A stretch of 64,000 nucleotides of DNA from Piedraia hortae CBS 480.64 (Eukaryota): the NCBI GenBank assembly GCA_010093745.1, contig MU005958.1, positions 496,001-560,000 of the forward strand, in the 5' to 3' direction. Shown piece by piece: positions 59,772-63,640 of the stretch. The translations under genes were made by a program, and so were the position numbers. The notes under the pieces were generated by a model that did not search any database, was not told where the DNA came from, and saw only the letters and a program-made list of their open reading frames with translations. Position 1 is the stretch's first letter. Each line of letters begins with the position of its first letter.

Positions 59772-62658
59772 ATGGCACATCTCTTACGAGGCAAGCAAGC
59801 AGGCTTACAAAACGACCTATCCGCAGGCTTATCAACTGAACTATTTGGCATCGACGACATCTCCCGTTGCGGCGTCAATAGCGAGATATCATGTTTAGCA
59901 TATGACCCGGTCCAGTCTCTCCTAGCCGTGGGCACCAAAGCTTCCCGCTTCGGCCGGGGTCAAGTATACATCTTTGGGCGGAACCGCATTCAAGTCATCC
60001 TACCCCTGCCTTCACCCAGAGGCACGAGTGTACAAACACTTCAATTCTGCGCCGACAAGTTGATCTGCCTGGATGATAAGCACGACATTGCAGTATTCTC
60101 CCTCGAGCGCAAGGACGTAGTGGCTGCATTCACACCGCCGGGAATTGTCACGACGGTTTGCTCGGATCCCACTCTCGACTATGCTCTGCTCGGGACAAGG
60201 GTGGGAGACGTACTCGCTTATGATCTGGATCGTGTGCGAATGACGAGCTTCAAAATTCCATGTCTGTGGACAGAGACTAACCCCACCGTGCGTTCGTCGG
60301 AAATCATTGGTTTGCAGTTTCATCCGAGAGATATTGGGGTGTTGTTGATTGGGTACTCATATGGTGCTGTTGTGTATAATTTCAAAAGAGAAAAGGCTCA
60401 ACGATTCTATCATTATGAGCAGTCAAACGGCAAGGGACCCAGGCTCACACAAGCCAATTGGCATCCTACAGGCACTTTTGTCGTGACGGGATACGAAGAT
60501 GGTTCAGTTGTGTTTTGGGACGCCGCAAAAGACGGCCGCATGCTACTGGCTAGGACATTGACCGAGGACAACTCTTTGGTCAAACAGCCAATTTTCAAAA
60601 TGGCATGGTGCGCAGGCCAGAACCCAGAGGACACGTCGATTCTGATTGCTGGAGGCCAGCCACCGCAGGATCCGATGAAAGGTTTAACGCTCTTCGATAT
60701 GGGTCGCACGCCAGCCTACGCAACCTCAACCTGGGATTCGCTGTCGAATTACTTGGCATCGCCTAAGAGTCAGCGCATATTTCCAACCCCACCCGGTGTG
60801 GATGTGTTGGATTTTTGCTTGATACCTCGTACGTCGCCGCATTATAATGGTGCTCATGACCCGTTGGCCGTCATTGCCGTATTGCCTTTTGGAGAGTTGT
60901 ACATGTTGGAATTTCCTTCTGGCGAACCTGCAAGCCCAGTGAATCGACTTCCAACTTCCCTGACGTTGGTGGATCCTTTTATCAAACAGGTCAACGTGAA
61001 CATGGCCGATCGGGAACGGTGGCTTGGCTTGATGGAGAGGAGACGACAGAGTCCGGAATTCCTCAGAGGAGGCGCAGAGGTCATCCGTACCAGGCGACGC
61101 TATGAGTCTCGTATGATTGTGCAAGCCGTGCATTCCAATGGATCCGTACGCCTTTACGACATTGGCCAGGGTGATGAGGTTGAGAATTGCCAAGTCTTAC
61201 AGGTCGATGTGGGGAGGGCTGTCCAGCGATTCGAAAATATTGCAGTGGCTCATACGAGCTTTGCATCGGCCAGCTGTGAGCTTGCTGTTGGTATGACGAC
61301 GGGAGAGCTGGTCATCTTCCGTTGGGGCGTCAAGCGACAAGTGCCCACGCAGCAGGGTCAATTGAAGAATATCTCTGACCGGGCGAGTCCTGATCTAAGC
61401 GAAGGCCTGTTGCCACTTACCTTATTGGAAGGACAACATGGGCCCGTCACGGCCGTGAAAATGAGCGACGTGGGTTTTGTAGCTGCTGGCTACGAGAATG
61501 GTGCTCTAGTGGTCATTGATCTAAGAGGGCCGGCTGTAATTTACTCTTCATCAATCTCGGACCTCAGCAAAAGCAGCAGTCGGGGCCTGCGAAGGAAGTC
61601 GAGCATTGGACATACAGACTGGGTAACCCGGCTCGAGTTCAGTGTCATGATGCTCGAGGGCGAAGATTACAGCAGCATTCTGTTGCATGTGGGGACAAAC
61701 TTGGGACGATTGGGCACATTCAAGATCCTTCCCAGTGCCAGTGGACAGTATACGGTTGAGCTCGCCGGAAGTGTTTCACTGGACAGTAAAATCGTGCAAT
61801 TTTCGCCAATTCGCACCGACTCGGGCAAGTCCGCAGCTGCTTCACAGGCAGTTGTAGGCAGTTTGCGAAACGGACTCAAAGTCAGTGGGGTTCTTATTGC
61901 AGTGAGCCAGAATAGCGTTCACATATTCAAGCCTGCCAGCTCAAAGGGCGCACACAAGACATTCGACAGCGCACTTTGCGAGAATGCGGGCGTGGTGAGA
62001 CATCAGGATCAAGGCTATGCGTTGGTTTGTCTGTTTTCTGACGGAACTGCGCGTGCTTATAGCATTCCATCCTTACGAGAGCTGGCTTCTCTAAGGCTGG
62101 GTCAAGTGCTTGATGCTAAAAGGTTCCACGAAGCTACGGTTGCGCCTACTGGGCACATTGTAGGGTTTGCTGGACCTTCGGAGCTGGCTGTGGTTTCTGT
62201 CTGGGGAGATGTTGAACGTCCAAAGAATCCTGACAAGCTGTTCAATGTTGAAGCAACTATACCACCTCGACCCACAATATCTGCTGTGCAATGGGTCACG
62301 GGAACGCAATACCTCACTCCTTTGGATCTTGATGTGCTAATTGGTGGTCCTGAACGTCCGCCTTCTAAGCGAATGCTGGCAGAGGCTGAAGCAAACCGCC
62401 CTGCTCCAGTACAAGGCACTGCAAACCAAGAAGGATACTGGGCTTATATGCAACGACAAGTGACCGAACGCACTCAGAACCTCAACCTAATGGGTGATAC
62501 GATGAGCGACATGGAAGAAGCCAGTGCCACATGGGCAAAGGATGTGAACAAATTTGTTAACCAGCAAAAGAAAAAGGCTGTGACGGGGAGTGAGTCTTTC
62601 ATACATCACAAGACGCAGGCTGACAACTCCAGTGATCAAGTCGAAATTCGGATTTTAG
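59772..62658 (+). CDS. SRO7: Lethal giant larvae/tomosyn-family exocytosis regulator
   Basis: [16 protein letters not shown]40 repeats, [15 protein letters not shown] and [10 protein letters not shown]. Intron 62590-62632 gives the C-terminus MIKSKFGF*, so the real end is 62658, not 62801. Confidence 0.92.
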
Positions 62659-62743: not shown

Positions 62744-63640
62744 ATGCGCTTCTCCTTTGACTACTGCCCCGACCGGCCCGAAAATATTGACCATATCCTG
62801 AACGGCCTTGATCGGTATAACCCAGAGACGACTATCATCTTCCAAGACTACGTAGAGCTGCAGTGTGAGAACCAGACCTATGACTGCTATGCGAACCTCG
62901 CCCTGCTAAAGCTGTAAGTACTGCAAAAACCCCTAGCCCTCCAATGATGACCAAAAAACGTTTCCTATTACCTGAACCTATGGTGATGTTCAACGAATAT
63001 TAGCTCTATCTGACCCTTATTTGCGTCCACTTGTAACCTCTAGCCGCGAGCAGCTGCTAACCGGACTAGATACCAATTCAACCCGCAGCTTACGCGGGAT
63101 GAAACCATCACAAACATCCTAGTTAAAGCGTTGACGGTTTTTCCATCTCCCGATTTCAGCCTCTGTCTCTCGCTACTTCCTCCCCATGTTGCCGGAACGA
63201 CAAAACAGCAGGGCGCCTCGTCTGCCTCAGCGGGAAGCATTACCGAGGCCGTACAGCAGCTCAGCGTGCTGCACGCACAGCTAAAAAACGCCCAGTACGC
63301 GCAGTTCTGGACCACGCTCGAGAGCGACGATCTCTACGCCGACCTGGTGGCCGACGTGCAGGGGTTTGACGAGCTGATGCGCGTTAGAATCGCCGTCGTC
63401 GTGTCGCAGTGCATGCAGGAGGTCGACCGCGACGTGCTGGAGCGCTGGCTGAACCTGTCCGGGTCCAAGTTTGATAAGTTCGTCAAGGACATTTGCGGAT
63501 GGGATGTCGACAACAGTGGGAAGTCCATCAAGATCCCGCTGAACAAGGACAACGAGGCGCGCAGCACAACAGTCAGGGAGGATGTCAAGTTTGAGCAGTT
63601 TGGACGCATGATTAAAAGGGCTTACGAGGTCGGCGCATGA
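62744..63640 (+). CDS. Translation initiation factor 3 subunit K
   Basis: [12 protein letters not shown]...[17 protein letters not shown] and [10 protein letters not shown]. One 156-nt intron at 62914-63069. Confidence 0.93.
62940..63016 (+). ncRNA. Intronic box C/D snoRNA, double guide (U44/SNORD44-like D guide)
   Basis: Box C ATGATGA 62944-62950, D' CTGA 62972-62975, C' GTGATGT 62983-62989 and D CTGA 63010-63013. Guide TATTAGCTCTA is complementary to the conserved 18S UAGAGCUAAUA. Guide ACGTTTCCTATTA is complementary (one G-U) to the conserved LSU UAAUAGGGAACGU. Confidence 0.85.

Follow-up and report, generated by a model that had tools for sequence, protein, structure and literature searches.

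A predicted double-guide box C/D snoRNA in the eIF3k intron of Piedraia hortae and other fungi

Box C/D snoRNAs assigned to one and the same adenosine of 18S rRNA are described from human, plants and Neurospora crassa. The human representative is SNORD44/U44, which serves Am166; it is hosted by GAS5 and carries a single guide. In Arabidopsis, snoR18a/b are assigned Am162 of 18S rRNA and Am2935 of 25S rRNA, both of which stand in the RiboMethSeq table of PMC8583080. The same source equates Arabidopsis A2947 with yeast A2946, so that Am2935 corresponds to yeast A2934; in the comparison-table rows for that site no human equivalent is entered. The Rfam family RF00359 (clan CL00060), which we equate with AtsnoR18 by matching guides and targets and not by a database statement, likewise has a D' guide directed to the H92a region of LSU rRNA and a D guide directed to 18S A162. 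Among fungi, the N. crassa snoRNA Nc CD32 (snoStrip family CD_32) is intronic, was cloned from cDNA, is assigned 18S-Am161 and is listed as homologous to snoR18 and U44 (PMC2780460). Its D' guide is directed to Um167 of 18S rRNA, and its host gene was not found in the searched passages and supplements of PMC2780460. As far as stated by Canzler et al. (PMC5824354), family CD_32 has been reported only in Sordariales.

We analysed a window of 64,000 nucleotides from Piedraia hortae, a dothideomycete of the order Capnodiales, in which a gene for the translation initiation factor eIF3k is interrupted by one intron (Table 1). The intron begins with GTAAGT and ends with TAG, and its excision yields an eIF3k reading frame of 246 amino acids extending from 62744 to 63640; the unspliced frame runs into stops within the intron. 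The translation of exon 2 is 100% identical to the 246-aa eIF3k of Piedraia hortae at NCBI (P0001). Two sequencing runs contain matching DNA, and one of them (X1) covers the stretch without interruption and may be where it comes from. A contig from X2, which we guess to be RNA although this is not on record, leaves out exactly 62914-63069; it bridges the intron with the snoRNA part uncovered and has no bearing, either way, on the presence of a small RNA. The restored frame, the identity to P0001 and the X2 junction thus bear out the 156-nt intron named in the preliminary description of this locus: it is real and spliced. For the other introns, which the preliminary description puts at 43-77 nt, a crude motif scan of the window operated at noise level (9 candidates of 43-52 nt, against 8.8 in shuffled sequence). 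The eIF3k intron folds no better than its shuffles (z -0.16). Upstream, the neighbouring gene reaches its stop about 85 nt ahead of the eIF3k start; near the end of that gene, 62590-62632 resembles a 43-nt GT..AG intron and includes a CTGAC branch motif, and the X2 contig continues for more than 4 kb upstream of 62700.

Table 1. Positions of the eIF3k exons, the host intron and the elements of the predicted snoRNA within the window.
Feature	Position	Strand	Remarks
eIF3k coding exon 1	62744..62913	+	56 codons + 2 nt; X2 contig cover up to 62913
Host intron	62914..63069	+	156 nt, phase 2, GT..AG; excluded exactly by X2 contig
Predicted mature snoRNA	62939..63016	+	about 75-78 nt; ends inferred from box positions
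Box C, ATGATGA	62944..62950	+	from the sequence
D' antisense element	62958..62970	+	13 nt; LSU, yeast-equivalent 2932-2944; predicted +5 = U2935 (E. coli 2566, H92a)
Box D', CTGA	62972..62975	+	invariant in window + 11 distinct orthologues (among the matches listed); next base variable
Box C', GTGATGT	62983..62989	+	6/7 consensus; core GTGATG 62983-62988
D antisense element	62998..63008	+	11 nt; 18S; predicted +5 = A162 (L147 numbering)
Box D, CTGA	63010..63013	+	56 nt ahead of 3' splice site
Branch-point motif, GCTAAC	63056..63061	+	intron sequence
eIF3k coding exon 2	63070..63640	+	PF10075, E 3.9e-31; 100% identical to P0001

Within this intron, the ordered C, D', C' and D boxes claimed in the preliminary description are indeed present at 62944-63013, with a span of 70 nt from box C to box D. 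The element thereby has the features of the box C/D class, namely RUGAUGA and CUGA near its ends, internal D' and C' boxes and rRNA-antisense sequence of 10-21 nt before D and D'. A pattern of the four boxes in this order, drawn post hoc, had one match in the window and 0.007 per shuffled window (300 shuffles). The ends of the mature RNA were placed by the convention that applies to Neurospora snoRNAs, with about 5 nt in front of box C and 2-3 nt behind box D. A terminal stem was absent from the predicted fold, in which the flanks of C and D are unpaired; such stems are common in C/D snoRNAs and are not required for intronic copies. At the gathering score Rfam had no match in the window, in agreement with the suggestion that the snoRNA is unannotated. 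The best match over the snoRNA was to RF00359 (snoZ102_R77), with 21.5 bits and E 2.1 against a gathering threshold of 40. On the same model a plant-type locus (L018) scored 98.1 bits, and the fungal loci L112 and L029 gave no match at E up to 3. An antisense match to ctRNA_p42d upstream was at chance level and was rejected. The intron of eIF3k almost certainly contains a real snoRNA.

Targets were evaluated on rDNA of other eukaryotes, among which one locus (L147) provides a full 18S, 5.8S and LSU unit. The two guides lie where the preliminary description had placed them, at 62958-62970 and 62998-63008. For the D' guide, its prediction of a 13-nt pairing with LSU rRNA and of the U in AAUAG as +5 nucleotide was reproduced on L147 rDNA: the duplex of 13 bp, including one G-U, is the best in L147 18S, 5.8S and LSU rRNA (runner-up 9), and its strength was matched by 1 of 150 shuffles. 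The D guide forms 11 Watson-Crick pairs with L147 18S rRNA; as 14 of 150 shuffles did equally well, this duplex is not significant alone. Support for the D guide comes from elsewhere, since guide and box are identical to those of Nc CD32 and equal the RF00359 consensus in 16 of 16 letters; the N. crassa counterpart of the duplex is published (PMC2780460). Its +5 nucleotide, A162 of L147 18S rRNA, corresponds to Am161 of N. crassa, Am162 of Arabidopsis and Am166 of human. The proposed equivalence with U44/SNORD44 is supported by the listed homology of Nc CD32 with snoR18 and U44.

The predicted LSU target is the U located 14 bases past the A-loop U of L147. Given that yeast Um2921 equals E. coli Um2552, it corresponds to yeast U2935 and, assuming no indel, would correspond to E. 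coli 2566, which closes the H92a mini-hairpin connecting H92 with H90. The LSU core was identical in 41 of 41 rDNA matches from other eukaryotes, which were chosen on that motif. Budding yeast is not known to carry Nm at U2935. The tables of the plant-yeast comparison give only those yeast sites that are common with plants, and a report of Um at the U2935 equivalent was not found in the literature searched, with most subscription papers and the Chaetomium Nm positions outside its scope. The G-U pair of the D' duplex (62963) and an unpaired C at position -1 (62971) were constant in 12 of 12 rows among the matches listed, and the rRNA base at the wobble site is G in all 41 of the motif-selected matches; this might reflect a second target or an upper bound to the strength of the duplex. 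Position 62970 is A in the fungal guide and G in plant-type guides. At the yeast-equivalent LSU position 2932 the 41 rDNA matches carry T in 21, C in 17 and N in 3 cases, and the A/G difference between the guides is likely compensatory to this U/C polymorphism.

The preliminary description had proposed to look for conservation in orthologous eIF3k introns. A metagenome scan with a pattern made of box C and the D guide only listed 117 matches, which is a lower bound. Among these matches, eIF3k is encoded around the match in 23 of 117 loci, and in 21 of the 23 the intron lies at the same codon as in the window, with lengths of 138-406 nt (the comparison of splice boundaries ended without L112). 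The 18-nt segment comprising the D' guide and its box was unchanged in 12 of the 23 listed eIF3k loci, 11 of them distinct, as L116 repeats L025. As the D guide was itself searched for, its conservation is circular, which does not apply to the host gene or to the D' guide. In a comparison of 10 loci, neighbouring segments of the intron had 13-50% identity to the window. In a 10-row alignment the A-T-G-A-x-G columns of box C are invariant, in loci partly chosen on that motif, and box C' is degenerate in the orthologues. Pairing of the D' guide was extended by 1-3 bases in 7 of 12 rows, the window counted. Across fungal classes, conservation extends to the boxes and the two guides but not to the remainder of the intron. 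The double-guide box C/D snoRNA hosted by eIF3k that had been proposed is supported.

Loci that carry the D' guide comprise an Aureobasidium-like one (L112, 99% identical to eIF3k of Aureobasidium pullulans), other Dothideomycetidae-like ones and a Chaetothyriales-like clade, within which L029 is 77-79% identical to Exophiala and Rhinocladiella proteins. From 11 of the 23 eIF3k loci among the matches listed, the window's D' guide is absent, which indicates that it is dispensable in some lineages. Five of these 11 form one clade within the Dothideomycetidae-like group. Three others (L075, L097 and L102) are distant, with about 38-55% identity to named proteins, and imply either that the eIF3k host is older than the D' guide or that the guide was lost there. 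Placement of the loci is coarse and gives no order of events, as the eIF3k tree was a quick version with 26 of 49 branches open.

Some loci contain other elements in this region. In the eIF3k introns of the nested clade of L003, L017, L021, L022 and L062, the LSU guide is replaced by an element ending in TTAGCATG before the CTGA box; this element resembles the D' guide of Nc CD32 and, by its sequence, could pair with 18S rRNA just 3' of the D target. In the distant L102, 8 nt agree with the guide region for Um167. Longer copies occur in L010, L065, L086, L115, L112 and L106, with a common internal GGAG..TGAATCC-like motif that follows the D' region and precedes the D guide. Of these, L010, a Pleosporales-like eIF3k locus, lacks the LSU guide.

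One claim of the preliminary description was not supported, namely that the combination of guides is new: both guide regions recur in RF00359, in unchanged order, and Arabidopsis snoR18a/b guide Am162 and Am2935. The two D' guides further have the core CCTATT in common but differ in register. In 12 fungal rows among the matches listed the core is followed by AC and CTGA, which leaves a spacer of 2 nt to box D', whereas in 26 plant-type rows (among the matches listed, near-duplicates included) it is followed by GGT and TTGA, with a spacer of 3 nt. In fungi the guide thus lies nearer to box D' by one base, and the predicted target is U2935 and not the A2934 of RF00359. The fungal snoRNA is moreover a single copy in an eIF3k intron, while rice snoR18b is reported from a snoRNA cluster. 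From Nc CD32 it differs in its D' guide, which pairs with LSU rRNA instead of the Um167 region of 18S rRNA. The RNA would hence work like snoR18 and U44, yet it scores below the RF00359 threshold, has another D' register than that family and lacks the D' guide of CD_32. It is a real and conserved RNA below the Rfam thresholds and a modest variant of a known family. The recurrence of the same two sites in the same order would favour inheritance in common with plants over convergence, but elsewhere among eukaryotes this D guide is joined to differing D' guides.

Other published snoRNAs were considered as precedents and set aside. Tetrahymena TtnuCD4, a candidate precedent for U2935 through a weak Rfam match, has a T. 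thermophila sequence without the guide, and its element is assigned by the authors to tRNA. The Aspergillus fumigatus RNA AM921920, given as a double guide of Pezizomycotina by Canzler et al., is Afu-191, with targets in 5.8S rRNA and U2. No entry of the A. fumigatus Table 1, which includes 10 orphans, is assigned the 18S and LSU sites predicted for the Piedraia RNA, and the T. rubrum paper makes no mention of RF00359, snoZ102, SNORD44 or U44. The survey of Canzler et al. could list an RNA of the Piedraia type under another family.

Taken as a whole, we consider it likely that the locus encodes an intronic double-guide C/D snoRNA for Am at A162 of 18S rRNA and Um2935 of LSU rRNA. Going by the known C/D pathway, the RNA would assemble with Snu13, Nop56, Nop58 and Nop1 during splicing, and trimming of the debranched lariat would leave an RNA of about 75-78 nt. 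The D guide would then direct 2'-O-methylation to the 18S counterpart of human A166, and the D' guide to the equivalent of LSU U2935, the last base of H92a at the H90-H92 junction beside the A-loop.

Alternatively, the snoRNA could methylate 18S A162 with a D' arm devoid of methylation activity, which would only pair with the H92a/H90 strand to chaperone its folding or to dock there. Chaperone C/D snoRNAs exist, yeast snR190 being an example, and the duplex spans one strand of a three-way junction that has to refold. Such a role would also be consistent with the poor conservation of box C', with the loss or replacement of the D' element in 11 of the 23 eIF3k loci among the matches listed, and with the lack of an Nm report at the U2935 equivalent in the literature searched. 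We nevertheless consider it unlikely, as a perfect CUGA stands at a fixed distance from the guide in 12 of 12 rows, which fits selection on the methylation register, and as the plant counterpart methylates its own LSU site.

Quite unlikely, too, is that the D' guide acts in a non-canonical register and methylates the plant snoR18 nucleotide A2934, or both neighbours. The equivalent of A2934 is the mapped site in Arabidopsis, the guides have their CCTATT core in common, and two sites are reported from one element of Nc CD27 (PMC2780460). The +5 rule, however, leads from the invariant CUGA to U2935, and if the box were moved by one base, its last letter would be variable (A in 2, C in 4, G in 4 and T in 2 of the 12 rows). 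Very improbable is a further reading, in which the motifs are a relic or serve the splicing or regulation of the eIF3k intron, and Piedraia hortae makes no functional snoRNA: although the missing terminal stem and the want of an Rfam match at gathering score (best 21.5 bits against 40) would agree with it, the window has four boxes and both guides intact, each conserved block is complementary to rRNA and terminates in CUGA, and the D half equals a cloned Neurospora snoRNA.

Under the favoured reading as a double-guide snoRNA, the class of RNA, the 18S site, the combination of the two target regions and intronic hosting are already known. What may be new is that eIF3k serves as host in several fungal classes and that the register is shifted by one nucleotide to U2935; a snoRNA in a fungal eIF3k intron was not found reported in the literature searched, most subscription papers being outside its scope. 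We see an even chance that an old double-guide snoRNA of plants and filamentous ascomycetes slipped by one base in its D' guide, moving the methyl group from A2934 to U2935, that this state became fixed in at least Dothideomycetes and Chaetothyriales and was lost or swapped in nested lineages, and that the D' arm on the U44 scaffold has been exchanged across eukaryotes.

If the U2935 assignment is true, fungi have an LSU modification at the ribosomal A-site junction (H92a) that is unreported in the literature searched, and the sharp prediction for black yeasts and Dothideomycetes is a Um at the yeast-U2935 equivalent beside the A-loop. The one-base shift relative to plant snoR18, together with close relatives in which the guide was lost or replaced, would make this a natural case for register-driven moves of a modification. 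The locus also fills a gap in the annotation of fungal snoRNAs, the RNA being under the Rfam thresholds and the nearest family, according to the survey, covered only in Sordariales. The mechanism itself is unchanged, since intronic C/D snoRNAs in housekeeping genes and the swapping of guides are well described in fungi.

Among the loci outside eIF3k, nine (L004, L011, L014, L047, L049, L054, L073, L087 and L088) combine a U44-type D guide with an snR38-type D' guide. The latter is directed to LSU rRNA near 2811-2824, and L087 reached 33.5 bits on RF00213. In L002, L043, L016, L033, L051 and L100 the D guide has yet other D' partners, for other LSU sites; these start near yeast-equivalent 2956, 2877 and 2914, and two lie in the 5' half of LSU rRNA. 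The same D guide accompanied by different D' guides in other eukaryotes argues that the D' arm is labile and has been widely exchanged. The snR38-type guide and the core of the plant snoR18 guide differ by one base, and relative to the latter the fungal guide is shorter by a further base; more speculatively, slippage of an snR38-type guide may have given rise to the H92a guide.

Of the records with eukaryotic rDNA (L118-L158), 40 are prokaryote genomes and 1 is viral. The full 18S-5.8S-LSU unit of L147 lies, together with a group I intron, within a bacterial MAG and is apparently a contamination.
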